A stretch of 29,971 nucleotides of DNA from a virus (taxonomy: Duplodnaviria > Caudoviricetes): the IMG/VR virus record IMGVR_UViG_3300003580_000011, positions 1-29,971 of that record. The stretch is one strand, 5' to 3'. A program made the translations under genes and the position numbers. A model generated the notes under the pieces. It ran no database searches and was not told where the DNA came from. It saw nothing but the letters and a program-made list of their open reading frames with translations. The stretch's first letter is position 1, and every line of letters begins with the position of its first letter. Of the stretch, positions 13,276 to 29,971 are shown piece after piece.

Positions 13276-13278
13276 CAA

Positions 13279-14746: not shown

Positions 14747-14927
14747 TTTCAATCAACCTGGATCCGAAAAGATAGGAATAACACCTGTATTCACAGAGTT
14801 TGTTGTACAATTGCAAATAGATAATATTTGTAAGATACTAAAAGGTGAAGTCAAGCATTACATTTGTACTGATAGAAATACAACCCATAAAAAAATTGTA
14901 ATTGAATACGGTCACGAAACCAAATGA
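14739..14927 (+). CDS. hypothetical protein
   Basis: MDDFNQPGSEK...; GGAGG RBS upstream of the ATG at 14739; ATGA-coupled to g47. Confidence 0.7.
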   Translation: MDDFNQPGSEKIGITPVFTEFVVQLQIDNICKILKGEVKHYICTDRNTTHKKIVIEYGHETK

Positions 14928-15964
14928 AAGTAGCTATCATCACGGACCAACACTTTGGTATGAGAAAGGGAAGTCAGATCTTCCACAATTTTATCTCCAA
15001 GTTCTACAGAGATGTCTTTTTCCCTACTCTTGAGGAGGAGGGTATCTATAATGTAATTGACTTGGGAGATACTTTTGATAATAGAAAGAGTATTGACTTT
15101 TGGTCTTTGGAGTGGGCAAAGAAAAATTACTATGATATTCTTAGGCAACACAATACGAAGGTGTATACAGTAATTGGAAACCATACTGCTTACTATAAGA
15201 ATACAAATAAGATCAACACAGTAGAACTTCTTCTTGAGGATTATCACAATGTAGAATGTTATTCACAAGCTACTGAAGTGATGATTGGTGGGTTGCCTAT
15301 TCTTTTCATTCCCTGGATCAATGAAGAGAATGTTGTAGAAACTAACAAACTCATCAAGAGTACAAAAGCAAAAGTTGCTATGGGTCACCTAGAACTTTCT
15401 GGGTTTGATGCACACCCTGGATACAATCATCAACGTGGCGATAGTTCAGATAAATATAAAAAATTTGAGAAGGTGTTCTCTGGTCACTATCATACCAAGA
15501 GCACCAAAGGTAATGTAACATATCTCGGAAATCCATATCAAATCTATTGGAATGATTATGGTGACAGAAGAGGGTTTCACATCTTTGATACTGATGATCT
15601 TAGTCTACGGTACATCAAAAATCCTTACACAATCTTTGATAAAGTTACCTATAATGATGAAGTCAATGATTATTCAGACCATGACTATGAAAATTATGGT
15701 GAGAAATTTATCAAAGTAATTGTAGAAAAGAAAACTGACTATAAAACCTTTGACAAGTTCCTAGAGAATGTTTATTACTCTGGTGCTCACGATGTAAAAG
15801 TTATTGAAAATTTTGATCTGAGTGCAGATGGTGAAGAAGAGATTGAAGTAGAAGATACTTTGACTACTCTTGAGAAATATGTAAACGAACTTGAGACTGA
15901 TCTGAATAAGTCTTCTTTGACATGTATCCTCAAAAATCTATATGTGGAAGCATCAGAGGTATAA
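14924..15964 (+). CDS. g47: recombination endonuclease subunit gp47 (Mre11/SbcD-like)
   Basis: Metallophosphoesterase motifs DQHFG, GDTFD, GNH, MGH, SGHYH. Confidence 0.95.
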   Translation: MKVAIITDQHFGMRKGSQIFHNFISKFYRDVFFPTLEEEGIYNVIDLGDTFDNRKSIDFWSLEWAKKNYYDILRQHNTKVYTVIGNHTAYYKNTNKINTVELLLEDYHNVECYSQATEVMIGGLPILFIPWINEENVVETNKLIKSTKAKVAMGHLELSGFDAHPGYNHQRGDSSDKYKKFEKVFSGHYHTKSTKGNVTYLGNPYQIYWNDYGDRRGFHIFDTDDLSLRYIKNPYTIFDKVTYNDEVNDYSDHDYENYGEKFIKVIVEKKTDYKTFDKFLENVYYSGAHDVKVIENFDLSADGEEEIEVEDTLTTLEKYVNELETDLNKSSLTCILKNLYVEASEV

Positions 15965-16227
15965 TGTTCATACTCACTCTCGAAGGATCTGGTCAGCAAG
16001 CATATGCTTCTAATACCAAGGACGGAAGTAGATCTTTACAACTCTTTATTGACAAAGACGACGCAGTACGCTATGCTGGTCTTCTGGAAGCAGATGATCA
16101 CCCTGCTTTAGAAATCGTAGAAGTAGATGACGATGGTATCGTCAAGACATGCGAACTTATGGGATATAAGTATTCCATTATTACTCCTGATGACTTTGTA
16201 ATTCCTGAACCCAATGATACTTTTTAA
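15964..16227 (+). CDS. hypothetical protein between g47 and g46
   Basis: MFILTLEG...DDAVRYAGLLEADD...ITPDDFVIP; TAATG coupling gives a start at 15964. Confidence 0.75.
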   Translation: MFILTLEGSGQQAYASNTKDGSRSLQLFIDKDDAVRYAGLLEADDHPALEIVEVDDDGIVKTCELMGYKYSIITPDDFVIPEPNDTF

Positions 16228-17929
16228 AACGATTCGGTGGCGTAACTTCCTTTCTACTGGCAATACCTTCACCGAAATTGCTCTGGATAGTTCTCAGGCA
16301 ACGTTGATTGTTGGTACAAATGGTGCAGGAAAATCTACCATTCTTGATGCATTGACATTCTCCTTGTTTGGTAAGCCATTCAGAAAGATCAACAAACCAC
16401 AACTGGTCAACTCTATCAATGCAAAAGAGTGTGTTGCTGAAGTAGAGTTTTTTATTGGTTCTGTTGAATGGAAAATTGTTCGTGGAATCAAACCAAATAT
16501 CTTTGAAATCTATAAGAATGGAACTAAGTTAGATCAGAACTCTTCTGCTGCAGATCAGCAGAAATGGTTTGAACAAAATGTTTTGAAGTTGAACTTCAAA
16601 TCATTTACTCAGATTGTTATTCTAGGCAGTAGTACTTTTGTTCCATTCATGCAACTGCCTGCTGCTGGTAGACGTGAAGTCATTGAGGATATTCTTGATA
16701 TCAAAATTTTCTCTACCATGCATATCTTAGCAAAAGAGAAACTGAGAATGATCAATGAAGAGATCAGGGATTTAGATTCTCGCGCAGAATTGGTCAATGA
16801 GAAGATCAACATTCAAGATAGATTTATTGGTGAACTCACATCTCAGTCGGACAAAAAGATTTCTGAGAAGCAGGAAGAGATTGAGCGATTGAAAAATACT
16901 AAGAAAATTTTATCAGGTCAAATTGACGAGTGCTTTACTACAATAGAAACTTTGGAGAAGATGTATATCTCTCCAAAGAAGTTGCATGAGAAGCATGATA
17001 AACTAAAATCTCTTTCTTTTCAAATTACTTCTAAGAAAAATTTACATAATAGAGATCTGAAGTTCTTCCAACAGACTGATGATTGTCCTACTTGCGGACA
17101 GCATATTGATTCTTCTTTCAAAGAAGAAAAGATCTCTACATATCGAGATAGTGTTGATGAAATGGTCAATGCACTTGAAAAACTTGATGTTGAACTTTCT
17201 TCCTTGAAGACTAATATTGATAACATTGTATCTTTAGCAGATCAAATTCAAGAAAAGAAGTATGACTTCAGAAAACTAAAGAATGACTGTATAAACATCG
17301 ATAATCAGGTTGAGTATATCACTAAAGAGATCTCTAGTATTGGAAACAATAATGTTGACAAAGAGATTGAAAAGCGCCAAGAGTTCTTGGGGCAAAAGAA
17401 ACTTCTGAATGACATGATTTCAGAAACTAAAAAAGCAAGAGATGAGCACGATGCAATCAATTATCTTTTGAAAGATAGTGGAGTCAAGACTCGCATTATC
17501 AAAAAGTATCTCCCTCTCATCAATAGAACTTGTAGAGAATACTTGACTCAAATGGATTTCTCTATCAACTTCTCTCTTGATGGTGAGTTCAACGAAACTG
17601 TAAAGTCTCCCATTCACGAAGACTTTTCCTATTCATCATTCTCTGAAGGTGAAAAGATGAGAATTGACTTAGCACTTTTGTTTACATGGAGAGAAGTTGC
17701 AAGAGTCAAGAATTCAGTCAATACTAATCTTCTCATTCTTGATGAGATTTTTGACAGTTCTCTTGATACATCTGGTACAGAAGACTTCTTGAAGATTGTC
17801 AGGTTTGCAGTCAAGGATGCAAATATATTTGTCATATCTCACAAAGGTGACATCCTTCAAGATAAGTTTGCAGACACCATCCAGTTTGAGAAGGTGAAAA
17901 ACTTCAGTAAGAAGGTGACAGTCAACTAA
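16214..17929 (+). CDS. g46: recombination ATPase subunit gp46 (Rad50/SbcC-like)
   Basis: GTNGAGKS, zinc hook CPTCGQ, signature FSEGE, LILDE, ISH. Confidence 0.96.
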   Translation: MILFKTIRWRNFLSTGNTFTEIALDSSQATLIVGTNGAGKSTILDALTFSLFGKPFRKINKPQLVNSINAKECVAEVEFFIGSVEWKIVRGIKPNIFEIYKNGTKLDQNSSAADQQKWFEQNVLKLNFKSFTQIVILGSSTFVPFMQLPAAGRREVIEDILDIKIFSTMHILAKEKLRMINEEIRDLDSRAELVNEKINIQDRFIGELTSQSDKKISEKQEEIERLKNTKKILSGQIDECFTTIETLEKMYISPKKLHEKHDKLKSLSFQITSKKNLHNRDLKFFQQTDDCPTCGQHIDSSFKEEKISTYRDSVDEMVNALEKLDVELSSLKTNIDNIVSLADQIQEKKYDFRKLKNDCINIDNQVEYITKEISSIGNNNVDKEIEKRQEFLGQKKLLNDMISETKKARDEHDAINYLLKDSGVKTRIIKKYLPLINRTCREYLTQMDFSINFSLDGEFNETVKSPIHEDFSYSSFSEGEKMRIDLALLFTWREVARVKNSVNTNLLILDEIFDSSLDTSGTEDFLKIVRFAVKDANIFVISHKGDILQDKFADTIQFEKVKNFSKKVTVN

Positions 17930-17972
17930 GTGTCCACTCACCCCTAGGGAACCTCCCTAGGGGTATTATAAT
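17915..17972 (+). promoter_or_regulatory. early-type promoter: GTGACAGT..AAGTGTCCAC + hairpin + TATAAT
   Basis: Bipartite motif, 10-bp inverted repeat 17940-17964, TATAAT 17967-17972; second copy at 20831-20886. Confidence 0.7.
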
Positions 17973-17995
17973 ATGTGCATACACAGAGAGGTTCG

Positions 17996-20092
17996 ATGTA
18001 CGTCAATCTAGAAGTCAAGGGTCAACTTGCCAAACTGCTCGCTACCGAGAACCTAATCGTTGAGCACCGCAATGTTGAAACTGCTCAGTTTGATGTGCAG
18101 AAGCGTGTACTGACTCTTCCTAATTGGAAACGTGCCTCTAATCAGGTGTTTGACCTGCTGGTTGCTCATGAGGTTGGTCATGCATTGTATACTCCTAACG
18201 AAGATTGGAGAAAAAAATGTAAAGTGCCTATGCAGTTTCTGAATGTCACTGAGGACGTTCGTGTTGAGAAACTGATGAAGCGTAAGTTTGGCGGTCTTCG
18301 TAAAACCTTTTACAAGGGTTATGGTCAACTTGCTGAACAGGACTTCTTTTCTATCAAAGATGAAGAAGTTGGCAAGATGAATCTTGCTGACCGTGCTAAT
18401 CTTTATTTCAAGATCGGTAACTTCACTGATGTTCCTTTCTTCAATCAAGAAGAGAGTGACATCATCAAAACTATTGAAGACGCAGAAACATTTGAGGATG
18501 CTATTGATGCAGCTAAAAAACTCTACCGCTACTGTAAAGATCAGCACAAAAAGCAACAGGAAGATCAACAGCAACCTACCAATCAAGGTTCTCCACAATC
18601 ATCAACTGATGGTCAACCCCAATCTGAATCAATCCAAATCGATTCGGAAGAGGATTCTGATGAATCTCAAGATCAAGTTGAGACTTCTAACAACACTGCT
18701 GGTAGCAATGTTCAGTCTCATTCAGATTTTACTGATAGTGAATCGTCCGAACCAGAAGTAAAAACTCAGAGTGAGTTGGATGAACAACTCAAAGATTTGA
18801 TTGGACATAATACTCATGATAACAAGTATATCGAGGTCCCCAATCTTGATCTTGATAAAGTTATTCACTCACATGAAAAAGTTCTTGCTGACCTCAATGA
18901 TCACTTTAGTGTCTTTTGTGAAGAATCATTTGATAGTTCTGATCTTTCCTATCGCCAGTTCTGTAAGTCTTCTGCCAAAGAAGTAAACTATCTGGTCAAA
19001 GAGTTTGAGATGAAGAAGTCTGCAAGTCAGTACTCACGTTCCAGTATTGCAAGGACAGGTGTGCTGGATTGTACTAAATTACACACGTACAAGTACAATG
19101 AGGATATTTTCAAAAAAATCACCGTCCTCCCTGACGGTAAAAATCATGGTCTTGTGTTTGTCCTTGACTGGTCTGGTTCTATGGGTGAGGTTATTCTTGA
19201 TACCGTCAAGCAAGTCCTGAACCTTATTTCTTTCTGCCGTAAGGTCAAGATTCCTTTTGAACTTTATGCATTCATCAATTCGTTTGCATGTGATCATGAA
19301 GACCGTTGGATGTCCCCTTTGGTTGAGAATACTGTTGTTTTCTTCAAGGAATTCAAAATGTTGAATCTTATCAGCAGTGAAGCAAAAACTAAAGAACTTG
19401 ATAAGCAAATGCTCAATCTGTACAGGATGGCATACAGTTTCCGTTACTATGTTGAGTACAGTGTTCCTCCTAGTTACGGTCTCTGTGGCACTCCACTGAA
19501 CAATGCTATTGTTACTTTGCATCAAATCATCCCACACTTTCAGAATAAAACTGGTGTTGAGAAGGTTAATGCAATCATCTTGACTGATGGTGAATCTGCA
19601 CCTATTCTTTCATCTGTATGCATTCCCGCAGAACAAAGTATTTACAGTAAAGATTATTGGGGAGTAAGTTCTGTAAATGACCGCACCTATCTTCGCAATC
19701 GTAAGACGGGTCATGTTACCCAGATGGGTTCCTATAGTGATCAGACTTCTAACCTGATCAAAGACCTTAGTGAAACATTTCCCAACACCAATATCATTGG
19801 TATTCGTTTGGTCAGTGGTCGCGACTTCTCTAACTTCCAACGTGACTGGGTTGCTTGGGAAGATCGTGAGAAAGTCACTAAGCAATGGCGTAAAAATAAG
19901 TCTGTTGTGATCAAGAAGGTTGGATTTGACGTGTTCTTTGCCATCGCTTGCAATTCTCTCAACAATAGTGTAGAATTTGATGTGGAGGAATCTGCATCTA
20001 AGACTCAGATTCGTAATGCTTTCAAGAAGTCACTCTCTTCTAAAGCACTCAACAAAAAAATCCTGACCGAATTTATCTCCATCATTGCATGA
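17996..20092 (+). CDS. HEXXH metallopeptidase-like + von Willebrand A domain protein (CobT-like partner of CobS)
   Basis: AHEVGH, EDVRVE, acidic linker, MIDAS DWSGS, GTPL, LTDGE; AGAGAGG RBS supports the ATG at 17996. Confidence 0.85.
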   Translation: MYVNLEVKGQLAKLLATENLIVEHRNVETAQFDVQKRVLTLPNWKRASNQVFDLLVAHEVGHALYTPNEDWRKKCKVPMQFLNVTEDVRVEKLMKRKFGGLRKTFYKGYGQLAEQDFFSIKDEEVGKMNLADRANLYFKIGNFTDVPFFNQEESDIIKTIEDAETFEDAIDAAKKLYRYCKDQHKKQQEDQQQPTNQGSPQSSTDGQPQSESIQIDSEEDSDESQDQVETSNNTAGSNVQSHSDFTDSESSEPEVKTQSELDEQLKDLIGHNTHDNKYIEVPNLDLDKVIHSHEKVLADLNDHFSVFCEESFDSSDLSYRQFCKSSAKEVNYLVKEFEMKKSASQYSRSSIARTGVLDCTKLHTYKYNEDIFKKITVLPDGKNHGLVFVLDWSGSMGEVILDTVKQVLNLISFCRKVKIPFELYAFINSFACDHEDRWMSPLVENTVVFFKEFKMLNLISSEAKTKELDKQMLNLYRMAYSFRYYVEYSVPPSYGLCGTPLNNAIVTLHQIIPHFQNKTGVEKVNAIILTDGESAPILSSVCIPAEQSIYSKDYWGVSSVNDRTYLRNRKTGHVTQMGSYSDQTSNLIKDLSETFPNTNIIGIRLVSGRDFSNFQRDWVAWEDREKVTKQWRKNKSVVIKKVGFDVFFAIACNSLNNSVEFDVEESASKTQIRNAFKKSLSSKALNKKILTEFISIIA

Positions 20093-20841
20093 CATTATCT
20101 AATCAAGATTGTCTGGAGTATATCAAATCTATTCCAGACAATTCTGTGGATCTGGTCCTTACCGATCCTCCTTACTTTATTGGATTTGATGGTGGTAAAG
20201 GTTGGGACTCTCAATGGGGTAGTGAAATAGAATACCTGGAGTGGTGTGATAAATGGACAGAAGAATGTGTTCGCGTTCTCAAACCTGAAAGAATGCTTGT
20301 AGTCTTCGGAACTCTGAAGACAGAGACATTTCTTCTTTATAAGTTGAGAACAACTGACCACAACTCTATCCTCACTCCACAGAATGAGATTGTTTGGAGT
20401 TACAACTGGGGTGGCAGAAGTAAGAACAACTTTGCTAGAAAACATGAGTATGCTTGGTGCTGGTCTAAGGGTAAGCAGTTTCTATTCAACGCCGATGACG
20501 TTCGTGTAGAAAGAAAAGTTTCTAAGAACTTGAGGACTGGAAAAGCGTATGAGAAAGGAACTATTCCTACCTGTGTGTGGGAGAAAAACAACCACACCAC
20601 TAGCAAAGAATATGTGAACTGGCATCCGACTCAGAAACCACTGATGATACTGGAAAGAATTATCAAAGCATATACCAATCCTGGAGATACAGTCCTTGAT
20701 ATCTTCAGTGGTTCTGGATCTACAATGATTGCTGCTATACAATCTGATAGAAACTTTCTTGGATGTGAACTCGATAAATCCTACTATGACAAATCGTTGG
20801 AACGCTATGGAGACCTAGTTGGTGCTCGACTGCCAGTCTGA
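20089..20841 (+). CDS. beta-class amino (N6-A/N4-C) DNA methyltransferase
   Basis: Motif IV TDPPY precedes HPTQKP and motif I DIFSGSGST, then GCELD; ATGA-coupled. Confidence 0.92.
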   Translation: MTLSNQDCLEYIKSIPDNSVDLVLTDPPYFIGFDGGKGWDSQWGSEIEYLEWCDKWTEECVRVLKPERMLVVFGTLKTETFLLYKLRTTDHNSILTPQNEIVWSYNWGGRSKNNFARKHEYAWCWSKGKQFLFNADDVRVERKVSKNLRTGKAYEKGTIPTCVWEKNNHTTSKEYVNWHPTQKPLMILERIIKAYTNPGDTVLDIFSGSGSTMIAAIQSDRNFLGCELDKSYYDKSLERYGDLVGARLPV

Positions 20842-20886
20842 CAACTGTCCACCGCCCCTTGTGAGGGCGGTTTTTTCATGTATAAT
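20831..20886 (+). promoter_or_regulatory. early-type promoter: TGCCAGT..AACTGTCCAC + terminator-like hairpin + TATAAT
   Basis: Same architecture as 17915-17972; ACCGCCC...GGGCGGT stem followed by T6. Confidence 0.7.
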
Positions 20887-20914
20887 ATATACATACACAA
20901 AGGGACGCCCTACA

Positions 20915-21985
20915 ATGCCTCGCAAAACCAACATCAACATGGATGCTCTGACGGTTTTCATTCAAGATAACTTCGGATCCGAGTTTGGTGCAGATGCTAT
21001 CCGTGCTGCTTCTTTGGAGTTTGGCGCTTCCTATCCCACTGTCAGCAAGCGACTTGAGCAATATAAAGTCGGTTACAACAAGTGGAACCTCACTGTTGAA
21101 GAAGCACGTCAGCAGTTTGAAGATAAGATTCAGACTATGGATAATGTGAAGCAAAACCTTGTCCCCGAGAAAGATGATAATTTTATCAAGTTTGGCAACT
21201 TCAACGATATCAAGAAAGTCATTCAGTCCAAGATCTTCTACCCCACGTTTATCACTGGTCTGTCTGGCAACGGTAAGACCTTCAGTGTTGAGCAAGCATG
21301 TTCTCAACTGGGACGGGAACTGATCCGTGTCAACATTACCATCGAAACTGACGAGGATGATCTTATTGGCGGTTTCCGTCTGGTTGCTGGTGAAACTGTT
21401 TGGCATAATGGTCCAGTCATCGAAGCTCTGGAGCGGGGAGCTGTGCTGCTTCTAGATGAGGTTGACCTGGCATCTAACAAGATCCTGTGTCTGCAATCAA
21501 TTCTGGAGGGCAAGGGTGTCTTCCTCAAGAAGATTGGTAAGTATATCAAACCTGCTGCTGGTTTCAATGTGGTTGCAACTGCCAACACTAAGGGCAAGGG
21601 TTCTGAAGACGGTCGTTTCATTGGAACTAACGTTCTGAATGAAGCATTCCTTGAGCGTTTTCCTGTCACTTTTGAGCAAGAGTATCCTACTTTTTCTACT
21701 GAGGTCAAGATTCTCAACAAACTGTGTGCAGATGCTGAATTCTGTAAGCGTCTTGCTGATTGGGCAGACATTATTCGCAAGACCTTTGCTGACGGTGGTG
21801 TTGATGAAGTGATCTCTACTCGTCGCCTGGTTCATATCATCAAGGCATACAACATCTTTGATGACAAAGCAAAGGCAATCCAGATCTGCCTCAACCGTTT
21901 TGATGATGAAACTAAGCAGTCCTTCCAAGAACTGTATGACAAGGTTGATGCTGACGTTGACTTTGACAAAGTAGAAGATTCCTGA
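20915..21985 (+). CDS. cobS: CobS/MoxR-like AAA+ ATPase
   Basis: GLSGNGKT, LLLDEVD, TANTKGKG, EAFLERF, ISTRRL. Start moved to ATG 20915, downstream of the promoter. Confidence 0.9.
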   Translation: MPRKTNINMDALTVFIQDNFGSEFGADAIRAASLEFGASYPTVSKRLEQYKVGYNKWNLTVEEARQQFEDKIQTMDNVKQNLVPEKDDNFIKFGNFNDIKKVIQSKIFYPTFITGLSGNGKTFSVEQACSQLGRELIRVNITIETDEDDLIGGFRLVAGETVWHNGPVIEALERGAVLLLDEVDLASNKILCLQSILEGKGVFLKKIGKYIKPAAGFNVVATANTKGKGSEDGRFIGTNVLNEAFLERFPVTFEQEYPTFSTEVKILNKLCADAEFCKRLADWADIIRKTFADGGVDEVISTRRLVHIIKAYNIFDDKAKAIQICLNRFDDETKQSFQELYDKVDADVDFDKVEDS

Positions 21986-21991
21986 TATAAT
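21963..21991 (+). promoter_or_regulatory. perfect sigma70 promoter TTGACA-17-TATAAT
   Basis: TTGACA aagtagaagattcctga TATAAT with TG extension; upstream of the g45-g44-g62-regA run. Confidence 0.85.
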
Positions 21992-22364
21992 GACTAATGC
22001 ATGGAGTCTACTTTACGATCACATTATGGAATCTGAAACTGAATTGAAATCAGAATTGAATCTTGGACCATCACATTTTTGGAAGTATGATGAAGACCTG
22101 ACACTCAAAGAAGTCCGTGAGTATCTGTCTGGAACCTATCGTGCTCACTACACTTCTCAGGAGTCCCAAACTCAGACACTTGATCTGATTGAAAGTATTG
22201 GTGATGCAGAACCTTTCTGCCGATCAAACGCTATCAAGTATCTGTCTCGCTTCGGTAAGAAGGGTGGCAAGTCCAAGATGGACATCCTGAAAGCAATTCA
22301 CTATTGCATCCTCCTTTACCACTTCGCTGGTATTCACAAACAAACTAGCAACTACCCTCACTGA
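21990..22364 (+). CDS. DUF3310-like protein
   Basis: HY...LDLIESIG...FCRSNAIKYLSRFGKK...DILKAIHY pattern. Confidence 0.75.
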   Translation: MTNAWSLLYDHIMESETELKSELNLGPSHFWKYDEDLTLKEVREYLSGTYRAHYTSQESQTQTLDLIESIGDAEPFCRSNAIKYLSRFGKKGGKSKMDILKAIHYCILLYHFAGIHKQTSNYPH

Positions 22365-22368
22365 ACGC

Positions 22369-23031
22369 ATGATGAAACTGACTAACGATACTAAGAATAT
22401 TCTTCGTAACTTCTGTGAGATCAACCAGTCTCTGCTGGTCAAGAAAGGGAACGTTCTTCGCACGATCTCTAATATGAAGAACATCCTGGCAGAAGCAACT
22501 ATCACTGAGGAGTTCCCTAATGATTTTGCTATCTATGACCTGGGTCAATTTTTGAATGGTTTCAATCTCCATCAGGATCCTGACCTTGAGTTTTCTGATC
22601 AACGATATCTTACGATCAAAGACAATGGCAGTCGCGTAAAGTATTTCTATTGTGAACCATCCCTGATCAAGGCACCCCCTGAGAAAGGGATTCAAATGCC
22701 TTCGATCGATGTTGAGTTTGTTCTCAACGATGGACAACTGAGTCTTCTTCAGAAAGCTTCATCAATTTATAGTCTTCCTGACTTGTGCGTCATCGGTGAT
22801 GGTGCTAAGATTAGTCTGGTGGTGAAGGACAAGAAGAACGACACCTCAAACGAATACTCTATTGTCGTCGGTGAGACTGACAAAGTGTTTGAGTTCTCTT
22901 ACAAGATCGAGAACATTCGTATCCTTCCTGGATCTTATGAGGTTGTCATCTCTGATAAACTAATCTCAGTTTTCAATCACAAGTCTCTGAACCTCAAATA
23001 CTACATCGCTCTTGAACCCGAGACCCCTTGA
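22369..23031 (+). CDS. g45: sliding clamp gp45
   Basis: MKLT..T..IL.NF..IN.S, FAIYDLGQFL, YYIALEP. Confidence 0.94.
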   Translation: MMKLTNDTKNILRNFCEINQSLLVKKGNVLRTISNMKNILAEATITEEFPNDFAIYDLGQFLNGFNLHQDPDLEFSDQRYLTIKDNGSRVKYFYCEPSLIKAPPEKGIQMPSIDVEFVLNDGQLSLLQKASSIYSLPDLCVIGDGAKISLVVKDKKNDTSNEYSIVVGETDKVFEFSYKIENIRILPGSYEVVISDKLISVFNHKSLNLKYYIALEPETP

Positions 23032-23555
23032 ACATCTTCGTTACACAACAAGACCCAAGTGTGTCAGCACAATGTTTGCCTGACAAACACGTAGTCAAAA
23101 TGCCACTAGAGTGCTGTCAGATGCTTGCTATCATCTACAGTAAGTGGTATTATGATTGGGCACCGCTGCCTAAGAAAGATGGTGGTTACTATGCAACTGT
23201 AAAAGGTGCATTCCGTAATCATCCCTGTACAATTTGGGCAGCACAAAACCACTACAACACTGCTTGGTTGATTCAGCATGGTATTGCTTTATGTACCGAA
23301 TACAAGCACCGTTACGGTAAAACACATTCATGTTCTAAAACATTATTTGAGGCAAAGAAAATTTTCCACAGACACTCTGAGAAAACAATCACTTGCTACT
23401 CTCTAGCAGACAACTTCGCCAGAGCAATGCCAGATGAATATAAACATGACACAAGCATTGACACTTTTACTGCTTACAAGATGTACATTAGCAGCAAACC
23501 TTGGGTTGCATCTAATTATCTTCGTGATGAATCCCGAAAACCGAATTGGGTATGA
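23028..23555 (+). CDS. pyrimidine-dimer DNA glycosylase / endonuclease V-like protein
   Basis: MNIF...DKHVVKMPLECCQML...HPCTIW...EYKHRYGKTH family pattern; TTG start overlapping the g45 stop. Confidence 0.75.
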   Translation: MNIFVTQQDPSVSAQCLPDKHVVKMPLECCQMLAIIYSKWYYDWAPLPKKDGGYYATVKGAFRNHPCTIWAAQNHYNTAWLIQHGIALCTEYKHRYGKTHSCSKTLFEAKKIFHRHSEKTITCYSLADNFARAMPDEYKHDTSIDTFTAYKMYISSKPWVASNYLRDESRKPNWV

Positions 23556-23698
23556 AGTGGATTCTTAGAGTAGACGAAGATGGTGTGATCACATTTCCCG
23601 ACGATCTTCTAGAAGTTACTGGATGGGTTGAGGGGGATGTGTTAGAATGGATTGACAACCAAGATGGTTCTTTTAGTTTGAGGAAAAATGAGTCGTAA
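23552..23698 (+). CDS. 48-aa AbrB/MazE/SpoVT-like DNA-binding protein (absent from the ORF track)
   Basis: MKWILRVDEDGVITFPDDLLEVTGWVEGDVLEWIDNQDGSFSLRKNES*; G-I-FP..L....GW..GD.L swapped-hairpin pattern; ATGA-coupled. Confidence 0.7.
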   Translation: MKWILRVDEDGVITFPDDLLEVTGWVEGDVLEWIDNQDGSFSLRKNES

Positions 23699-24635
23699 TG
23701 ATTTTCTTTGGGTTGAGAAGTATCGACCCAAAACTGTGAACGATTGCATCCTGCCAAATGCAATCAAGAAACCTCTCCTTGAGTTTGTAGAGACTGGGGA
23801 GATTCCTAATCTACTGCTTGCGGGTCCTGCAGGTATTGGCAAAACAACGGTTGCCCGAGCGTTGTGTGAAGAACTTGGGTGTGATTATATTGTTATCAAT
23901 GGATCAGATGAAGGACGATTTCTTGACACTGTACGGAACCAAGCAAAGAATTTTGCATCGACCGTATCACTTCAAGCAACTGGTAAACCAAAGGTCATCA
24001 TTATTGATGAGGCTGACAACACCACCCACGATGTTCAACTCCTACTACGGGCAAACATTGAGGCGTTTTATAGCAACTGTAGATTCATCTTCACTTGCAA
24101 CTACAAAAACAAAATCATCGAACCCCTGCACTCCCGATGTGCAGTCATCGACTTTTCAATCGGTAGCAAAGACAAACCTGCAATCGCAGCACAGTTTTTC
24201 AACCGTCTCAGGACTATACTTGAGGAGGAGAATGTACAATATGATCCAAAGGTACTTGCCGAACTAATCAACAAACACTTCCCTGACTGGCGACGTGTTC
24301 TAAATGAGTGTCAGCGGCATGGCACTGGTGGGTCTATCGACACCTCTATCCTGGTTCAGATCACTGACGTTGATACCAACACTCTGGTCAAAAACCTCAA
24401 GGATAAGCGGTTTGGTGAGGTTAGGAAGTGGGTGGTCAACAACCTAGACAATGATCCTGCAACCATCCTGAGGCGTGTCTACGACGCCCTGTACGCCGCT
24501 CTGGAGGGGTCTAGCATCCCTGCTGCTGTCCTGGTCATTGCTAAGTACCAATATCAAACTGCCTTCGTGGCAGATCAGGAGATCAATCTCCTAGCGTGTC
24601 TAACTGAAATTATGGCGGAGTGTGAATTCAAATGA
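23688..24635 (+). CDS. g44: clamp loader large subunit gp44
   Basis: WVEKYRP, GPAGIGKT, IIDEAD, PLHSRC, FPDWRR. Confidence 0.96.
   Translation: MSRNDFLWVEKYRPKTVNDCILPNAIKKPLLEFVETGEIPNLLLAGPAGIGKTTVARALCEELGCDYIVINGSDEGRFLDTVRNQAKNFASTVSLQATGKPKVIIIDEADNTTHDVQLLLRANIEAFYSNCRFIFTCNYKNKIIEPLHSRCAVIDFSIGSKDKPAIAAQFFNRLRTILEEENVQYDPKVLAELINKHFPDWRRVLNECQRHGTGGSIDTSILVQITDVDTNTLVKNLKDKRFGEVRKWVVNNLDNDPATILRRVYDALYAALEGSSIPAAVLVIAKYQYQTAFVADQEINLLACLTEIMAECEFK
24618..24635 (+). repeat. 18-bp direct repeat, left copy (GAGTGTGAATTCAAATGA)
   Basis: Identical to 25139-25156; encodes ECEFK* of gp44. Confidence 0.95.
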
Positions 24636-25156
24636 ATTTGGACTTTTTAAATGAGTATTGGAATATTGTTGGATCTGAACAAGGAACACAAGCAATTCGA
24701 CAGGACAAGCATTTTGAACCTCTTACCAATCTTTTATTGAAAGGTAACAATTCAGGTATTGCTGAAGATAAAATCCCAGTTAAATATAGACCTTGGAAAA
24801 AATGGGACTTACATTTTCCTTCTTTACGTATTGCTATTGAATATAAAAGCATTACCTCAAAAAGTATTGAAAAGTGTAAATATCTTCGTGTTGAAGAAGC
24901 ACTAGGATCTGCAATTGATCTGAAAAAACAAAACGATAATTATCGTTTGGGATTTTTGTTAGTTTTTGCTTTCCCATTTGAAAATGAAAAAATCATTAGA
25001 GCAAGAGATTATATGATCAGCGCATTTAATGATATGGTCAGTGACGGTATTTACGACTTCTTCTGTCCATTGCAAACTAGTTCTGTGGATAATCACTATG
25101 AATTGTCTACAAAAAATAATTTTAAAAAATTTATGTGTGAGTGTGAATTCAAATGA
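24632..25156 (+). CDS. PD-(D/E)XK nuclease resembling the XhoI/PaeR7I type II restriction endonuclease family
   Basis: YRPWKKWDL...AIEYKS...RVEEALGSAIDL...LGFLLV matches my recollection of the family pattern RP-K-WD...AIE-KS...R-EEA-G-A-DL; AT-rich; flanked by direct repeats. Confidence 0.7.
   Translation: MNLDFLNEYWNIVGSEQGTQAIRQDKHFEPLTNLLLKGNNSGIAEDKIPVKYRPWKKWDLHFPSLRIAIEYKSITSKSIEKCKYLRVEEALGSAIDLKKQNDNYRLGFLLVFAFPFENEKIIRARDYMISAFNDMVSDGIYDFFCPLQTSSVDNHYELSTKNNFKKFMCECEFK
25139..25156 (+). repeat. 18-bp direct repeat, right copy
   Basis: Identical to 24618-24635. Confidence 0.95.
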
Positions 25157-25446
25157 TTGATGTAAAACTAATTCGTATTGTAACTGGCGAAGAAATTATC
25201 GCTGAAGTTGTCGGTCAAACCGATGAAACAATCACTGTCAGGAATGGACTTGTAGTTCTTCCTAGTGCTCAAGGTGTTGGATTTGCACCATGGGCGACTG
25301 TTATTGATAACGATAATCCAGATATTACTGTCTCCATGAAACACGTTGTGTATGTGGTAGCAACTCAAGAAGATGTTGCCAAGAAGTACAATGAAATGTT
25401 TGGCAGCAAGATTGTCACACCATCATCTAAGAAGTTGATCGTATGA
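25153..25446 (+). CDS. hypothetical protein, possible Sm-like fold
   Basis: VKLIRIVTGEEIIAEV...ITVRNGLVV; ATGA-coupled. Confidence 0.75.
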   Translation: MIDVKLIRIVTGEEIIAEVVGQTDETITVRNGLVVLPSAQGVGFAPWATVIDNDNPDITVSMKHVVYVVATQEDVAKKYNEMFGSKIVTPSSKKLIV

Positions 25447-25655
25447 TCGTCAAGACAACACCCCAAAACGTAGCAGAAGCACATGAAGGATTGTTTTATG
25501 CTACAATGAACCTACCTACTGCCGCTGCTCACTGTGGCATGTCTCAGAAAGAAATGAAGATGACTTTTTGGGAATATCTAAAGTACCACCAACCTAATTA
25601 TGAAGTCCCTGAAAACACCATTAAGATACCCAGGCGGAAAGAGTCGGGCAACTAA
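25443..25655 (+). CDS. hypothetical protein (possible HTH)
   Basis: MNLPTAAAHCGMSQKEMK resembles a helix-turn-helix; ATGA-coupled. Confidence 0.65.
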   Translation: MIVKTTPQNVAEAHEGLFYATMNLPTAAAHCGMSQKEMKMTFWEYLKYHQPNYEVPENTIKIPRRKESGN

Positions 25656-26427
25656 GTACATTCTTCCTAGATTTCCTCAAGGTCTGAGTGAATATAGAGA
25701 ACCTTTCCTCGGTGGAGGTTCTGTTGCTATCGAAGTGACAAAACGTTTCCCAGGTACTAAGATTTGGGTCAACGATTTGTACGAACCATTATATAATTTT
25801 TGGAAACAACTACAACTAAATGGTAATGAAGTTGCGAACATCCTACTCCAGCTCAAACAAAGGCACCCTGACCCCACTTCCGCGAGGCATCTTTTCAATG
25901 ATGCAAAGAAGTACCTTACCAAAGACCTTTCTGATAGCGAGGATATTCATCGTGCTGTGTCTTTTTACATTGTCAATAAGTGCAGTTTTTCAGGTCTTAC
26001 AGAAGCAAGTTCCTTCTCAAAGCAAGCCTCAGACAGTAACTTCAGCCTTAGAGGTATAGACAATCTAAAGTTCTATCAACAACTGATTGGTAACTGGACC
26101 ATCACAAATCTTTCATATGAAGAATTGATGAATGGTGATCCTGAAACTTTCATCTATCTTGATCCCCCTTATGAGATCAAAGATAATCTTTATGGTAAAA
26201 AGGGTGCCATGCATAAGAAGTTTGATCATGATCTGTTTGCATCTTCTATGGGTGCAGCAAAGTGTAAGTGCATGGTCAGTTACAACGCCAGTCAACTTAT
26301 CAAAGATCGATTCAAGGATTGGAAAACTTATGAGTTTGATCTGACTTATACCATGAGATCTGTTGGTCAATACATGAAAGAGCAGAAAGATCGTAAAGAG
26401 ATTCTACTACTAAATTATGAAGTGTGA
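25600..26427 (+). CDS. dam: Dam-like (alpha-class, D12) DNA adenine methyltransferase
   Basis: PLRYPGGKS, EPFLGGGSV, NDL, YLDPPY, VSYN, EILLLNY. Confidence 0.92.
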   Translation: MKSLKTPLRYPGGKSRATKYILPRFPQGLSEYREPFLGGGSVAIEVTKRFPGTKIWVNDLYEPLYNFWKQLQLNGNEVANILLQLKQRHPDPTSARHLFNDAKKYLTKDLSDSEDIHRAVSFYIVNKCSFSGLTEASSFSKQASDSNFSLRGIDNLKFYQQLIGNWTITNLSYEELMNGDPETFIYLDPPYEIKDNLYGKKGAMHKKFDHDLFASSMGAAKCKCMVSYNASQLIKDRFKDWKTYEFDLTYTMRSVGQYMKEQKDRKEILLLNYEV

Positions 26428-26560
26428 AGTTACTTTGTTCAAAGCAGGCACAGTATTCAAAGAAGAAGTGATAGCTGTCGATTATCAAGATGCCCGTAAG
26501 GTTGCCCTTGCTCGTAACCCTGGAGCAAAAGTTGTTGGTGTTACCGCAGTGTTCAAATGA
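26417..26560 (+). CDS. 47-aa hypothetical protein (absent from the ORF track)
   Basis: MKCEVTLFKAGTVFKEEVIAVDYQDARKVALARNPGAKVVGVTAVFK*; bridges dam and g62 with ATGA coupling. Confidence 0.7.
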   Translation: MKCEVTLFKAGTVFKEEVIAVDYQDARKVALARNPGAKVVGVTAVFK

Positions 26561-26943
26561 AGTATGAGTTGAAAGACTGGTTGAACTCTATCAACCATAC
26601 TAAAGAGGATCTGATTGAGAATGATCCTGATGCAATTAAAAAGTATCCCCCTTTTATTGTAAACAGATGTTTGTCTGGTCATATTGATACACTTCTTTTC
26701 GCTAATGAAATGAATATACATCATAACCTTCCCAAGGACATGCAATATTCTTTCTTTATAAATACCGTTAGGAAAAAGAAACGTTTTTCTCCTTGGATAA
26801 AAAAAGATAAAGTTGAAGACTTAGATTGTATCAAAAGTTACTATGGTTATAGTGACGCCAAAGCACTCCAAGCACTTAGGATTTTATCAACCGACCAAAT
26901 AAACTACATTAGATCTAAACTTGATATTGGGGGATTGAAATGA
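26557..26943 (+). CDS. g62: clamp loader small subunit gp62
   Basis: LKDWLNSIN, YPPFIVNRCLS, ANEMN, KKKRFSPW, YYGYS; precedes regA. Confidence 0.92.
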   Translation: MKYELKDWLNSINHTKEDLIENDPDAIKKYPPFIVNRCLSGHIDTLLFANEMNIHHNLPKDMQYSFFINTVRKKKRFSPWIKKDKVEDLDCIKSYYGYSDAKALQALRILSTDQINYIRSKLDIGGLK

Positions 26944-27365
26944 CCACATTTGCGGAACCAGAGATTCACTGGACTGAATCTCATATGATTGAAGTTACTC
27001 TGAAAGAACCAGATGATTTCCTAAAAGTGCGTGAGACTTTGACTCGTATTGGTGTCGCTTCTCGCAAAGAAAAGAAACTTTACCAATCTTGCCATATTTT
27101 ACACAAGAAGGGTAAATACTATATCGTACACTTTAAGGAACTCTTTGCACTCGATGGGAAAAAGGCTAATCTTACTGCTAACGATGTTCAACGTCGTAAC
27201 CGTATCGTACAACTCTTGTCTGATTGGGGACTCATCGTCGTTGTCAACGCAGAAGTAATCACTGATATTGCACCACTGAATCAAATCAAAGTTATTGCAT
27301 TCAAGGAGAAGGGTGAGTGGATCCTAGAAACTAAATATAATATTGGCAAGAAAAAAACTAAATAG
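26940..27365 (+). CDS. regA: translational repressor RegA
   Basis: DDFLKVRETLTRIGVA, LYQSCHILHKKGKYYIVHFKELFALDG. Confidence 0.97.
   Translation: MTTFAEPEIHWTESHMIEVTLKEPDDFLKVRETLTRIGVASRKEKKLYQSCHILHKKGKYYIVHFKELFALDGKKANLTANDVQRRNRIVQLLSDWGLIVVVNAEVITDIAPLNQIKVIAFKEKGEWILETKYNIGKKKTK
27357..27364 (+). promoter_or_regulatory. late promoter ACTAAATA
   Basis: Box at the regA stop, 21 nt before ATG 27386. Confidence 0.7.
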
Positions 27366-27385
27366 TAGAGCCTTACTATTCTACT

Positions 27386-27703
27386 ATGGCTAATAATAAG
27401 CCTAAAGTAGAGAAGGCAGACGATGATGATAAAAGTGAAGTTCTTGGTAATCTTGTAAAAGTTGTTGTTCTTATTTGGTCTGCTTCTCTCCTTACATTTT
27501 CTTACGTTAGACTTCCAAACGGTCAAAAGATTTTAGATTTTGATCCTACTTTTATCGCATCTGTCTTTTCTGGATCGCTAGCTGCGTTCGGACTGTCCCC
27601 TGCTAAAGCAGGTGGTGGTAACGTTAAAGCAGCACAAGCGAAGAAGGAAGAACCTACTGTTGTTTCCGCCGTTGAGCCAAAGAAAGATGCAAAAACTGAT
27701 TAA
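27386..27703 (+). CDS. small two-TM membrane protein (holin-like topology)
   Basis: Hydrophobic segments VLGNLVKVVVLIWSASLLTFSYV and FIASVFSGSLAAFGL; charged termini. Confidence 0.7.
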   Translation: MANNKPKVEKADDDDKSEVLGNLVKVVVLIWSASLLTFSYVRLPNGQKILDFDPTFIASVFSGSLAAFGLSPAKAGGGNVKAAQAKKEEPTVVSAVEPKKDAKTD

Positions 27704-27965
27704 CGTTGTAGCACTGCTGTCTGGTCTGACCTCTCTTGGTCTTATCGGTGGTAGTGCTTATTTGCTGTTGAATAAGGATGCCCTTATCGATCAAGCAAAG
27801 AGTGCTGCTACTAAAGCAGCAACAGAGGCAGTCGCTGGTGCCCTTCCAGGTATGCTAGATGCTGCTATGCCCGAGTTGCCTAACGTAACTGGCGGTGCCC
27901 TTCCTGCTACTCCTGCAGTTGGTGGTGGTGCTGCTGCGGTTACAGGTCCTGCACTTCCATTCTGA
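27687..27965 (+). CDS. N-terminally anchored Ala/Pro/Gly-rich membrane protein
   Basis: MQKLINVVALLSGLTSLGLIGGSAYLLL signal/TM segment; ATG at 27687. Confidence 0.75.
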   Translation: MQKLINVVALLSGLTSLGLIGGSAYLLLNKDALIDQAKSAATKAATEAVAGALPGMLDAAMPELPNVTGGALPATPAVGGGAAAVTGPALPF

Positions 27966-27967
27966 CC

Positions 27968-28609
27968 ATGGCCATATTCAATCCTAAGAAAAAAGAGACT
28001 GAGCAAGTCACCGAGCAAGTACCGAGCAAGTCGCCCATCAAGGGTATTGCACTTGCACTAGGAGCATTGGTTGGTATTTCTCATATTGGACTTTTAGGGT
28101 ATGTTGTCAGGGACAATACCCCTAAATTGAGAGAAGTCCCTACTATCAATATACCTAGAGGAGATTATTCCTCCTATACTATCAAAGCAGGTAAGGATGG
28201 ATATGAAATTGAATACCGAGCAAACGATCCTGCCATCTTAGAGTCGCATAGATCTCTTGGTGTTAATAAAAATAAGAAAGGATTGTTTGGTGGTGGTACT
28301 GAGGTGCGTCGTGAAACTCGTTACGACCAATACACTATGGACGGAACCCGTAACATAGGAGGAGCGGGAGGTGCAATAGGTGAAGAGGGAAAGATGAATG
28401 CCCAAAGCGCAGAGTGTATAGCGGCGGACGCTGGAGCACGATCACAAGGTGCGATGGCAGGTAGTGCTATTGCTGCTGGTGCCATTGTCCCTGCCGTTGT
28501 CAACATTCCTTACATCGGATGGTTAGCAGGTGGTTGGGCACTACTTCTAGGACAGAAAGCAGGATCATCACTAGGTTCTCAAGTTGGTAGTGTATTTAAT
28601 GATTGCTGA
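27968..28609 (+). CDS. membrane protein with N-terminal TM and C-terminal glycine-zipper-like hydrophobic region
   Basis: IKGIALALGALVGISHIGLLGYV; GAMAGSAIAAG...IPYIGWLAGGWALLLGQKAGSSLGSQVG. Confidence 0.75.
   Translation: MAIFNPKKKETEQVTEQVPSKSPIKGIALALGALVGISHIGLLGYVVRDNTPKLREVPTINIPRGDYSSYTIKAGKDGYEIEYRANDPAILESHRSLGVNKNKKGLFGGGTEVRRETRYDQYTMDGTRNIGGAGGAIGEEGKMNAQSAECIAADAGARSQGAMAGSAIAAGAIVPAVVNIPYIGWLAGGWALLLGQKAGSSLGSQVGSVFNDC
27998..28032 (+). repeat. three tandem AC(T/C)GAGCAAGT(C) units of 12, 11 and 12 nt
   Basis: ACTGAGCAAGTC ACCGAGCAAGT ACCGAGCAAGTC. Confidence 0.85.
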
Positions 28610-29406
28610 TGGATATTCCTATTATTAGTGGTATTGATGTTGATATCAAAGATATCAGTATTGGTGAATTGAGAACATATCAATACACTCCACCATCAGT
28701 TCCTTATGCTGCACCAGTGACGGTCAACATTGGATCTCCAATTGTTAATGTGCCTGGTTGTGTAGAGGCACATGAACAGAATACCACCAAAGAAAGAAGT
28801 GGTGTTCTTTCTGAAGATGATCCCAAAGGGGTCAAAGTATTTTGTGATTCTGGAATGCCGTCTTTCAATCCGATTGACTACAATAAAGATGAATTGAAGT
28901 TTGAATATGAAGCACCTGTTCCAAAGGTAGCATCTCCAGAAAAACCAGAAGCACCTGCATCATCAGTACCGCCAACCAACACCGAGGCAGTAACAGTAAA
29001 ACTATGTCCTACAAGAGATCAGGAACTAAAAAACCCTGTAGGAAAGATCCTAGAGGGCAATAAGAAAATTACTGGGTATGAAAGGGTGGGCAAGGAATGT
29101 TTGATGGTTACCGAGAACCTAACCATTCCTGATCAGATCATCGGCAACATACCTAATGCTGGGGCAGTAACAACTACTGCGAGTATTGCTTTGGTTGCTA
29201 CCACATCTGCACTGTTGGCAAAACCTTTAGCAGATATTCTTCTCAAGGTTGTGAAACCTACTATCAAAAAAGTAATGAAGAAGATTGCTAAGATTAGGGG
29301 GAAACAAATGAAGATCGAGTCTGTAGGGGAGCGCCGAGCTGAGCAGCGTCAGAGGAATGAAGCGATTGCAAAGATTCGCGCTGTTCAGGCGAAGACGAAG
29401 AAGTAG
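28609..29406 (+). CDS. hypothetical protein with Cys pairs, a late TM segment and a basic tail
   Basis: TGATG coupling gives a start at 28609; TTTASIALVATTSALLA hydrophobic segment; K/R-rich C-terminus. Confidence 0.75.
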   Translation: MDIPIISGIDVDIKDISIGELRTYQYTPPSVPYAAPVTVNIGSPIVNVPGCVEAHEQNTTKERSGVLSEDDPKGVKVFCDSGMPSFNPIDYNKDELKFEYEAPVPKVASPEKPEAPASSVPPTNTEAVTVKLCPTRDQELKNPVGKILEGNKKITGYERVGKECLMVTENLTIPDQIIGNIPNAGAVTTTASIALVATTSALLAKPLADILLKVVKPTIKKVMKKIAKIRGKQMKIESVGERRAEQRQRNEAIAKIRAVQAKTKK

Positions 29407-29971
29407 AAGGAATTCTATGTACGTGTGGATGTTTATGTCCTGGAGGATTATTCACAACCACATCAGCACACACCTTATAGTAAGGGGACTTGGGATGAAA
29501 TCGTATTCCACGTAACATCAAATCCCCACAATTCTTGAGTCTCGCAATCTCAAAATCTAACCTTTTGTTAGCAACTAATTGTGAGTTCAATTCAATCTGA
29601 GTTCGTGCTGCTTGTTTACAAAGATCTTGTAAGCTCTTATCGATGGGTGTACTCCATGTCATAGAGAAACCAATGCCTAGACTGTAGTTATCTTTCTGAC
29701 CAGTCCTGGTTTTTTTGTGGAATTGAATGTCTCCTGGATTATCAATTAGACCGTCTCCAATTGGATCGCCATTATCATCGAAGGCACCGTAGTTATCACT
29801 CACATCATAAACAGGATCCATATAATAAGGTTCATATGGTTTAGAAGCAGAAGCACTTCCTGTTACATAGGGAGTGAAGTTGCGAGTGGGACCTTGACAC
29901 TGTATCCCTCCACCATATGTGTTTGTAATGTATGGTCCTTGAAGGACTTGTATAGCCTGGTTTGTAACGGA
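29294..29971 (-). CDS. hypothetical protein, 5'-truncated by the window end
   Basis: Frame stays open from the window edge: SVTNQAIQVLQGPYITNTYGGGIQCQGPTRNFTPYVTG...YMDPVYD...; the ORF-track start at 29821 is probably internal. Confidence 0.8.
   Translation of the reverse strand, partial: SVTNQAIQVLQGPYITNTYGGGIQCQGPTRNFTPYVTGSASASKPYEPYYMDPVYDVSDNYGAFDDNGDPIGDGLIDNPGDIQFHKKTRTGQKDNYSLGIGFSMTWSTPIDKSLQDLCKQAARTQIELNSQLVANKRLDFEIARLKNCGDLMLRGIRFHPKSPYYKVCADVVVNNPPGHKHPHVHRIPSTSSSSPEQRESLQSLHSSDAAQLGAPLQTRSSFVSP

Follow-up and report, generated by a model that had tools for sequence, protein, structure and literature searches.

A likely methylase-free, XhoI-related nuclease gene behind g44 in a T4-like cyanophage

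The DNA analysed here, called the window below, is a stretch of 29,971 nucleotides (nt) of a Caudoviricetes virus (IMG/VR record IMGVR_UViG_3300003580_000011). It is a segment of a T4-like cyanophage genome in which terminase, tail-sheath, portal and capsid genes lead to g46, g45, g44, g62 and regA; most names of the upstream genes are our own reading of the open reading frames (ORFs). Among cultured phages, Synechococcus phage S-BM3 is closest to it (98.7% amino acid (aa) identity in gp44). At the stop of g44, the gene for the clamp-loader large subunit (23688..24635, plus strand, 315 aa; phrog_168, E 3e-130; Pfam Gp44_lid), starts a gene for a protein of 174 aa (24632..25156, plus strand), which was characterized by its profile matches, motif, structure model and GC content. 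As judged from sequence and structure prediction, there is a somewhat better than even chance that this protein is an XhoI-related PD-(D/E)XK restriction-type nuclease, a predicted homodimer, which would cut CACGAG/CTCGTG together with CTCGAG (possibly CWCGWG) and from which the phage would be protected by the absence of sites, without a methylase.

The insert is bounded by direct repeats. An exact 18-mer is found at 24618-24635 and 25139-25156, the sole exact repeat of at least 16 nt in the window (chance expectation, about 0.013 pairs), and it extends imperfectly to 26 nt with 3 mismatches or to 29 nt at 86%. Both gp44 and the 174-aa ORF end in ECEFK*, and at both stops an ATGA overlaps the start of the next gene. 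The left copy (24618..24635, plus strand) is the host's own g44 end, encoding MAECEFK*, and the same allele is found in relatives without the insert, called empty below. It has a GGAG motif at 24617-24620, and its ATGA overlap starts the nuclease gene. The right copy has a 24-nt form encoding MCECEFK* (25133..25156, plus strand), has GAG only instead of GGAG, and provides the ATGA start of a conserved cyanophage Sm-like gene (phrog_527, 97 aa, 25153..25446, plus strand), which is translationally coupled to the upstream stop. The GC content of the insert is 30.9% against 40.4% for the window, and its GC at third codon positions is 0.23 against 0.47 for g44; three other stretches of the window also have 33% GC or less. 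TTAA is scarce in the window (23 observed, 102 expected), and 4 of the 23 copies are within the insert (P = 4e-4 for 4 in 525 nt). The perfect repeats with their longer imperfect extension, the shared protein end and the ATGA starts had been described in an earlier note on this DNA and were each found again at the same positions, and the composition counts agree with the AT-richness and the four TTAA sites reported there. The repeat had also been considered as a possible product of misassembly. In runs X4 and X8, which belong to two other studies, the insert and both junctions are spanned by single contigs (2,010 and 1,979 nt) that differ from the window at 4 and 2 positions; thus, the insert is not an assembly artefact. 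Scans for promoters and terminators gave chance level only, and no RNA data set containing this stretch was listed.

Several comparisons suggest that the 174-aa protein is a distant XhoI relative with a type IIP-like fold, below the family cut-off. XhoI (PF04555) was the sole Pfam family at E <= 1 (E 3.7e-4, residues 48-99), and the 20.9 bits of this match do not reach the gathering threshold of 25. PADLOC gave a REase_II match at E 3e-5. Searches with the family profile yielded 62 proteins in a first database and, in a second, 46 representatives of clusters; a profile of 20 rows reached XhoI-family proteins (best E 1e-15), and the XhoI cut-off was passed by 26 of 30 scanned matches. The kinship with XhoI and PaeR7I that had been proposed is supported by the Pfam match, although this is below the gathering threshold, and by the profile search. 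The proposed PD-(D/E)XK pattern was also borne out: W58, D59, E70, Y71, K72 and R86 are invariant in 48 of 48 alignment rows, and D59, E70 and K72 are on strands 56-62 and 67-75 of the model. Since the catalytic residues remain invariant in members down to about 26-40% identity, selection seems to act on activity. The SFGNNFNNR segment of XhoI, with its presumed role in recognition, is present in L210, L211 and L213, and the window protein has KSIEKCKYLR at that position, just as the replacement had been described; the putative recognition segment comprises residues 73-92.

The predicted model (predicted local distance difference test, pLDDT, 88) consists of the 174 aa with no second DNA-binding domain. 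It can be aligned with PspGI at Z 10.3 (root-mean-square deviation 2.9, 146 aligned), NgoMIV at Z 9.5 (3.1, 148), NucC at Z 8.2, and PfoI and BbvCI at Z about 8. In a Foldseek search of a viral library, the top named row was a 'restriction endonuclease' of S-CAM7 (TM 0.52), and the ESM Atlas has three mostly viral clusters of look-alikes, one with XhoI on 13% of its members. The predicted homodimer scored 0.71 (pLDDT 90) against 0.01 for the best of 3 controls, a mark that 20 of 30 solved pairs and 1 of 23 single chains reached and that may reflect likeness to solved dimers. The runs agree in at least 92% of contacts, and pairing would occur via helix 84-99 and the loop 51-56. With XhoI and PaeR7I, therefore, the protein shares detectable homology, the motif order WD...E(Y/F)K...R.EEA.G.A.D, a predicted two-fold dimer and a type IIP fold. 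Apart from the low Pfam score and the replaced segment, it differs from them in its length (about 245 aa is canonical), in having no linked methylase, and in a genome signal that adds CACGAG/CTCGTG. No profile of the known homing families (GIY-YIG, HNH, LAGLIDADG, PDDEXK_5, EDxHD) matched it in Pfam, no PHROG matched below E 0.27, and neither collection gave an integrase or transposase match. The insert is related to the XhoI family, most likely works as a methylase-free restriction nuclease, and does not behave in these comparisons as a classical homing endonuclease or an insertion sequence.

The family was found only in viral and metagenomic contigs. There was no protein match in 50,697 INPHARED phage records, PDB sequences or NCBIfam, one pattern scan of GTDB genomes found none, and scans with P0015 and P0016 added no more held-out carriers. 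Close relatives (58-100%) are located after g44 in six lineages, after psbD in two, after psbA in one and before g59 in one, and distant relatives (34-51%) after tRNA-Pro or other genes, where the g59, psb and tRNA labels are our reading of the sequences. The g44-linked copies other than L011 form one clade (support 97/94), and gp44 identity between carriers goes down to 49-54%; one carrier, G004, has 32% GC. In three g44-linked phage pairs, the nuclease has 81-84% aa identity versus 62-70% for gp44, and the proportion of identical synonymous codons is 63-72% versus 49-55%. From these sequences, the nuclease gene is optional and moves horizontally between phages at g44. The recent horizontal acquisition suggested earlier agrees with this conservation above gp44, and with the replaced downstream tract described below. 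The g44-linked copy of L011 (4004-4630) lacks its own stop and runs about 100 nt out of frame into g62, and the psbA/psbD-linked copies of L010, L024 and L027 begin right after a terminator-like hairpin and T-run, which could damp expression.

Empty alleles were found in the window's own species. Cultured S-BM3 and the same-species contigs L153 (= L065), L154 and L155 have a one-copy junction with the Sm-like gene directly next, and with these four the nuclease is an optional gene between conserved genes, as homing-type genes are. It had been claimed that removal of one repeat and the insert restores the junction; one-copy empties do exist, but none of the four is identical to the window minus its insert. 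They differ because the first ~210 nt of the Sm-like gene in the window are a different allele. Along g44, identity to the four empties is 92-100% per 60-nt bin, with no sign of an immunity patch, and the last 130 nt are identical to two of them, L153 and L155. In the Sm-like gene, by contrast, the first ~210 nt (25157..25366, plus strand) are only 55-77% identical per 60-nt bin to the same-species empties before identity returns to 97-98%, and the same stretch is 83-95% identical to another phage, L090. The MCECEFK ending of the right copy closes g44 in 12 of 116 other phage loci. A replaced Sm-like start and a foreign-type right copy next to a host-type left copy imply that the acquired tract is longer than the ORF. 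From these comparisons, the right copy is likely a displaced g44 end brought in with donor DNA, and this DNA most likely entered from the g44 end to about 25366, so that the 5' part of the Sm-like gene appears imported. Recombination would have occurred on the left in the conserved 3' end of g44 (within 23688..24635, plus strand), which seems to serve as both recombination arm and insertion hotspot, and on the right in the repeat or the downstream gene. When run X12 was compared with window 25020-25310, one contig had the nuclease 3' end followed by other downstream DNA, and the window-type Sm-like start has a depth of 66 versus ~3 for the insert.

This one-sided tract of ~210 nt resembles co-conversion, and a classical free-standing homing endonuclease has to be considered, which would cut one long site near the g44/Sm-like gene of empties and be copied in by break repair, with the repeat as a displaced gene end. 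The gene is optional, its g44-linked clade crosses phage lineages, and HNH and EndoVII genes share both its site and its repeat. According to two papers, g44, psbA, psbD, g59 and tRNA-Pro are typical homing addresses (PMC2988022, PMC6083498), and a third paper describes C-terminal duplication around endonuclease ORFs of Glomus and Allomyces (PMC3630166). However, the identity of the last 130 nt of g44 to two empties means that there is no immunity change there, the gene downstream of g44-linked copies varies (Sm-like, 124-aa ORF, phosphoribosyltransferase or g62), the model has no additional domain for DNA binding, and a genome-wide lack of CACGAG would stay unexplained. In addition, the segment KSITS(K/R)SIEKCKYLRVEEALG is near-identical in the copies beside g44, psbA, psbD and g59, which one long local target cannot explain. 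We consider homing of this classical kind quite unlikely. Near identity of the putative recognition segment at four addresses argues for a short word instead, and thus missing words were sought, as described below.

T4-like free-standing homing endonucleases (Seg/Mob, F-CphI; PMC2988022, PMC6083498) are also optional genes coupled to conserved neighbours, with a mobE-like stop/start overlap, with addresses by psbA, tRNA and g59/g32 and with replaced flanking sequence. They belong to other nuclease families and cut one long site, whereas here the signs are of a six-base word missing from the whole genome and of an unchanged g44 end. In fungal mitochondrial mobile ORFs (Allomyces atp6; Glomus atp6, atp9, cox2 and nad3), an endonuclease ORF likewise stands between two host-gene 3' ends (PMC3630166). 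There the incoming copy replaces the gene end, whereas the left copy here matches empty relatives, and the duplicated part is only 18-26 nt and occurs in many unrelated genes.

About 1,600 viral loci have this g44 ending; the repeat was examined at 120 of them, of which 91 were scored (dropped were 4 whose match was itself the downstream copy, 3 duplicates and 22 that were open or too short). Where the next ORF encodes a nuclease (HNH, EndoVII, PDDEXK_5-like), it ends in a second copy of the g44 end (at least 14/18) in 7 of 9 cases, versus 2 of 82 for all others (p = 1.5e-7). These classes come from a Pfam and PHROG scan of 29 of the 67 next ORFs of at least 90 aa and one Sm-like control; most of the remainder either were identified by BLAST as Sm-like, Dam or gp62 or repeated types already scanned, and L058 was counted as a nuclease via its phrog_5018 match, while its best PHROG is labelled methyltransferase. 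By eye, one of these two others, L141, shows a motif like PD-(D/E)XK. The copy in the other nucleases begins at GGAG ~11 nt before the ATG, so it covers the start region of the next gene. At L057, L060, L067, L074, L096, L107, L125, L141 and L151, HNH, EndoVII or PD-(D/E)XK-like genes end in or shortly before a g44-end copy, and several of the g44-stop nuclease proteins terminate in ECEFK, EYEFK or ECELK. Non-nuclease ORFs with such an end are seen at L131 and L142 (one like the ATP-grasp/RimK C-terminus by eye), thus the duplication is not confined to nucleases. PD-(D/E)XK-type genes occupy the g44 site in other cyanophages as well, at L074 and probably at L058, L141 and cultured S-T4. L058 belongs to the window's own species and has a different gene at the g44 junction; S-T4 has this other gene at g44 too, with a degenerate repeat. 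For T4 itself, the earlier statement that mobile nucleases of T4-like phages usually are GIY-YIG or HNH enzymes holds (PMC2988022), but at this site PD-(D/E)XK-type genes occur as well.

Among the g44-linked lineages of the nuclease, the repeat is present in three of six, perfect in the window, 17/18 in L002 and 14/18 in L003, and each time resembles the g44 end of its own host. It is absent from L004, L023 and L011 (10, 7 and 4 of 18), and none is apparent at the psbA, psbD, g59 or tRNA copies. After the right repeat of L003, there is an apparent start-less remnant of a small ORF before the Sm-like gene (2197-2256). The earlier note had taken the repeats as a sign of the element's own mobility, and a self-mobilising element at the g44 stop, with an 18-bp target duplication and precise excision, would explain both the three repeats and a 24635-25139 joint seen in run X15. 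This explanation is hardly credible to us. The X15 joint, from a mixed community, is backed by just 30 letters on the shorter side and fits ordinary empties; none of the four same-species empties is a precise-excision product, and unrelated genes carry the same repeat. Duplication does not accompany every insertion, as it would for an insertion sequence, and no recombinase match was found in Pfam or PHROGs. Being common to unrelated nucleases and missing in half of the lineages, the repeat belongs to the site and not to this gene. We infer from the sequences that insertions into the ATGA overlap may survive only if they duplicate the start region of the next gene; the repeat would be a duplicated g44 end that preserves both the C-terminus of gp44 and this start region. 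The g44 stop is a shared landing site at which the same duplication of the gene end is left by nucleases of at least four unrelated types, and such repeats should therefore not be taken as target-site duplications.

A side result of this survey is a 132-aa gene, phrog_16903 ('methyltransferase'), which is found at the g44 junction with a duplicated g44 end in L058 (1115-1510) and in S-T4 (L335:1301-1699, 93% identical), and also in cultured S-PRM1, S-MbCM6 and S-BM1. It is probably a misannotated nuclease, as its sequence matches phrog_5018 like PDDEXK_5-like L074.

The missing words point to a candidate cut site. In the discovery carriers (136 kb), CACGAG/CTCGTG is the most depleted of 2,080 hexamers (1 versus 21.9 expected), and among the words present once at most in all 285 kb of carriers, its expectation of 30.9 far exceeds the next highest, 6.0. 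In codon shuffles, 11 close-clade records have 1 CACGAG versus 35.8, and 22 non-carrier pieces have 85 versus 110. The whole window (1..29971) has no CACGAG/CTCGTG, CACGTG or CTCGAG, against 5.2, 3.0 and 4.6 in codon shuffles. Of the held-out carriers, G004 (137 kb) has zero CACGAG, with a shuffle mean of 11.6 and minimum of 8, and G062 (19 kb) also has zero. When records with at least 2 expected are compared, zero CACGAG is found in 5 of 5 carriers versus 4 of 28 non-carriers (p = 5e-4). Nine cultured non-carriers have 57, 55, 59, 25, 57, 5, 49, 65 and 5 sites, none of them zero. The depletion goes with the type of loop, as contigs of family members with other loops have 22, 7, 11, 10, 23 and 1 (G015, 22 in 22.7 kb; G072, 23 in 136 kb). 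The word is asymmetric and the only carrier-specific one, whereas a type IIP homodimer would act on a palindrome; CACGAG/CTCGTG fits the degenerate palindrome CWCGWG, which is the top one (1 versus 68.5 in carriers, 142 versus 321 in non-carriers). CACGAG is one base away from CTCGAG, which we take to be the XhoI site. The suggestion that the enzyme has been re-specified thereby gained a candidate site. A frameshifted member (L018 / L203:10001-10460) stands in a 145-kb contig with 6 CACGAG and a CTCGAG nearby, as if sites had returned once the gene was broken.

Other targets were considered and rejected. CCGG, GGCC, TTAA and AGCT are avoided equally by empty S-BM3 and not by other carriers. 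Sites of the CCGG family that the fold points to (CCWGG, RCCGGY and others) are present in carriers, GAATTC inside the repeat has 8-13 copies in each carrier set, the absence of CTCGAG is common to non-carriers, and the His-Glu codons at the psbD 3' end are not CACGAG in 6 cultured phages read or 20 picocyanobacterial loci. Avoidance independent of the insert is strong in this lineage (CCGG, 0 versus 19 in the window and 0 versus 93 in S-BM3; also GGCC and AGCT; TTAA, 76 versus 552 in the whole S-BM3 genome), and it may point to other nucleases or methylases there.

Several observations weigh against the XhoI-related nuclease with a widened site. A Foldseek search against PDB found no match at E <= 0.001 (best E 0.018). 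Selection of the word among 2,080 was post hoc, and the ten most depleted words of the held-out set taken by itself do not include CACGAG, because G004 avoids many others. In L023, which carries an intact gene of the close clade, one CTCGTG that overlaps a GATC is located at a distance of 750 nt from the gene. Counts can be low in the absence of the gene, too (S-BM3, 5 in 169 kb; S-T4, 5 in 181 kb; G046, 2 in 85 kb), and 5 of 38 whole non-carrier records have zero CACGAG; thus lineage or host history can mimic the signal, and the non-carrier contigs are fragments in which the gene may sit elsewhere. The distant members G006, G016, G063-G066, G068, G071 and G073-G076 have other loops and yet are CACGAG-free, so loops and words do not correspond one to one. 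CTCGAG and CACGTG are scarce in non-carriers too (9 versus 78; 13 versus 83) so neither word is evidence specific to carriers. GCATGC, TGCGCA, GTGCAC and further palindromes, also absent, are possible targets too. Finally, a distant member, L017, is directly before a methyltransferase gene.

This last fact bears on protection. Two methyltransferase genes are located within 4.6 kb of the insert, a Dam-like D12 enzyme (25600..26427, plus strand; PF02086, E 4e-32) and an N6/N4 DNA methyltransferase (20089..20841, plus strand; PF01555, E 8e-50). The nuclease might be half of a dispersed restriction-modification (R-M) pair protected by the phage's own methylase, or else a near-neutral passenger with another target word. 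The L017 copy abutting a methyltransferase and the L023 exception overlapping GATC are in line with the former, and one paper describes the marseillevirus and chlorovirus systems as complete R-M pairs (PMC7253447). But both methylases are also in empty S-BM3, and no methylase accompanies the close clade or moves with the gene from address to address at psbA, psbD, g59 or tRNA, which upholds the earlier remark that no cognate methylase is adjacent. A passenger is disfavoured by the invariant catalytic residues. Both variants together seem improbable.

Another possibility is that the enzyme keeps the XhoI specificity, CTCGAG only, and shreds the host chromosome, with the CACGAG lack as an older lineage trait or a weak off-target by-product. 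No intact carrier examined in the phage subfamily has CTCGAG, and one site is found beside the frameshifted L203. Five Synechococcus/Prochlorococcus genomes contain 120-1,116 CTCGAG (and 171-1,014 CACGAG), and chlorovirus restriction enzymes degrade host DNA (PMC7253447). However, the near-absence of CTCGAG from non-carriers makes its absence in carriers uninformative, the SFGNNFNNR segment is replaced, and the loss of CACGAG is common to unrelated carriers and not to members with some other loops. We regard this narrow specificity as unlikely.

For the XhoI-related nuclease with the widened site, the following course can be proposed. The gene, which is coupled behind g44 via the ATGA overlap, would be expressed with the replication genes, and its product would cut unprotected six-base sites. 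Most of the tested cultured cyanomyophages offer 25-65 such potential targets per genome, and the host between several hundred and about 2,000. In eight cultured cyanomyophages (W02-W09), CTCGAG occurs 0-3 times per genome and CACGAG mostly 25-65 times; CTCGAG is nearly absent from S-BM3 as well. Even an enzyme of XhoI type would cut host DNA at hundreds of places. Widening of the site to CACGAG would bring a small gain against the host and a large gain against rival phages, at a cost to the carrier of about 55 own sites. Since cyanophages are nearly all CTCGAG-free and hosts are not, phage-phage exclusion is the likely driver and cutting of host DNA secondary; we infer that exclusion would be the main benefit. 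Of the three roles suggested earlier, two fit best, namely the exclusion of rival phages and the cutting of host DNA, whereas classical long-site homing fits poorly. The hosts themselves avoid CTCGAG little (941 versus a control of 1,092 in one genome). The gene would persist only where sites are absent or few. The window's species is site-poor (S-BM3 has 5 sites, none within 16 kb of g44, and G005 has none), and it looks pre-adapted to the nuclease.

The same enzyme might also home. In a more far-reaching version, which we hold possible though tentative and more doubtful than not, a widened methylase-free weapon (CWCGWG) would also make short-site cuts in conserved neighbours where a genome has few copies of the word, and the gene would be pulled in by repair from the carrier. 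Such homing-like cuts are proposed in the His-Glu codons of psbA, in psbD sites, and in Ser-Arg-Ala codons of dam and denV beside g44. Either psbA or psbD contains the word in 7 of 8 cultured non-carriers and 0 of 3 psb-linked carriers, which are small counts, and dam beside g44 has it in 0 of 5 carriers versus 13 of 40 non-carriers, too small to count. A homing-like side effect of the word in psbA, psbD and dam is only suggestive. If true, a restriction enzyme would have turned into a gene drive by a short-site route, and this would be a cause of the avoidance of hexamers in phages throughout the ocean.

If the XhoI-related nuclease acts as proposed, lytic phages would carry methylase-free restriction enzymes, self-protected by lack of sites and aimed at other phages, and word avoidance that is usually blamed on host defence would have a phage-side cause. 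As described in PMC7253447, chlorovirus and marseillevirus R-M systems are also virus-borne, patchily distributed and directed against host DNA or co-infecting viruses, but they have an adjacent cognate methylase and eukaryotic hosts, whereas protection here is apparently by site absence. The intron homing endonuclease of phiPA3, according to PMC11620839, is likewise a phage nuclease that aids its carrier by harming a co-infecting phage; it is intron-encoded and of homing type, and the present one is free-standing, of restriction type and predicted to cut many sites. In the literature searched, no CWCGWG restriction enzyme was found, and no paper on an XhoI-like mobile phage nuclease or a 'phage-encoded restriction endonuclease', in a search that most subscription papers were outside of.

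Some features near the locus do not concern the nuclease. S-BM3 (phycoerythrobilin) and L001 have a gene after cobS that the window lacks. Between denV and g44, the window has a 50-aa AbrB/MazE-like gene (23546-23698, plus strand; phrog_661), which is unannotated in S-BM3. Within g44 itself, a 149-aa ORF in the +1 frame (23818-24267, plus strand) is also open in L003, L004, L008 and L009, with 47-54% identity.

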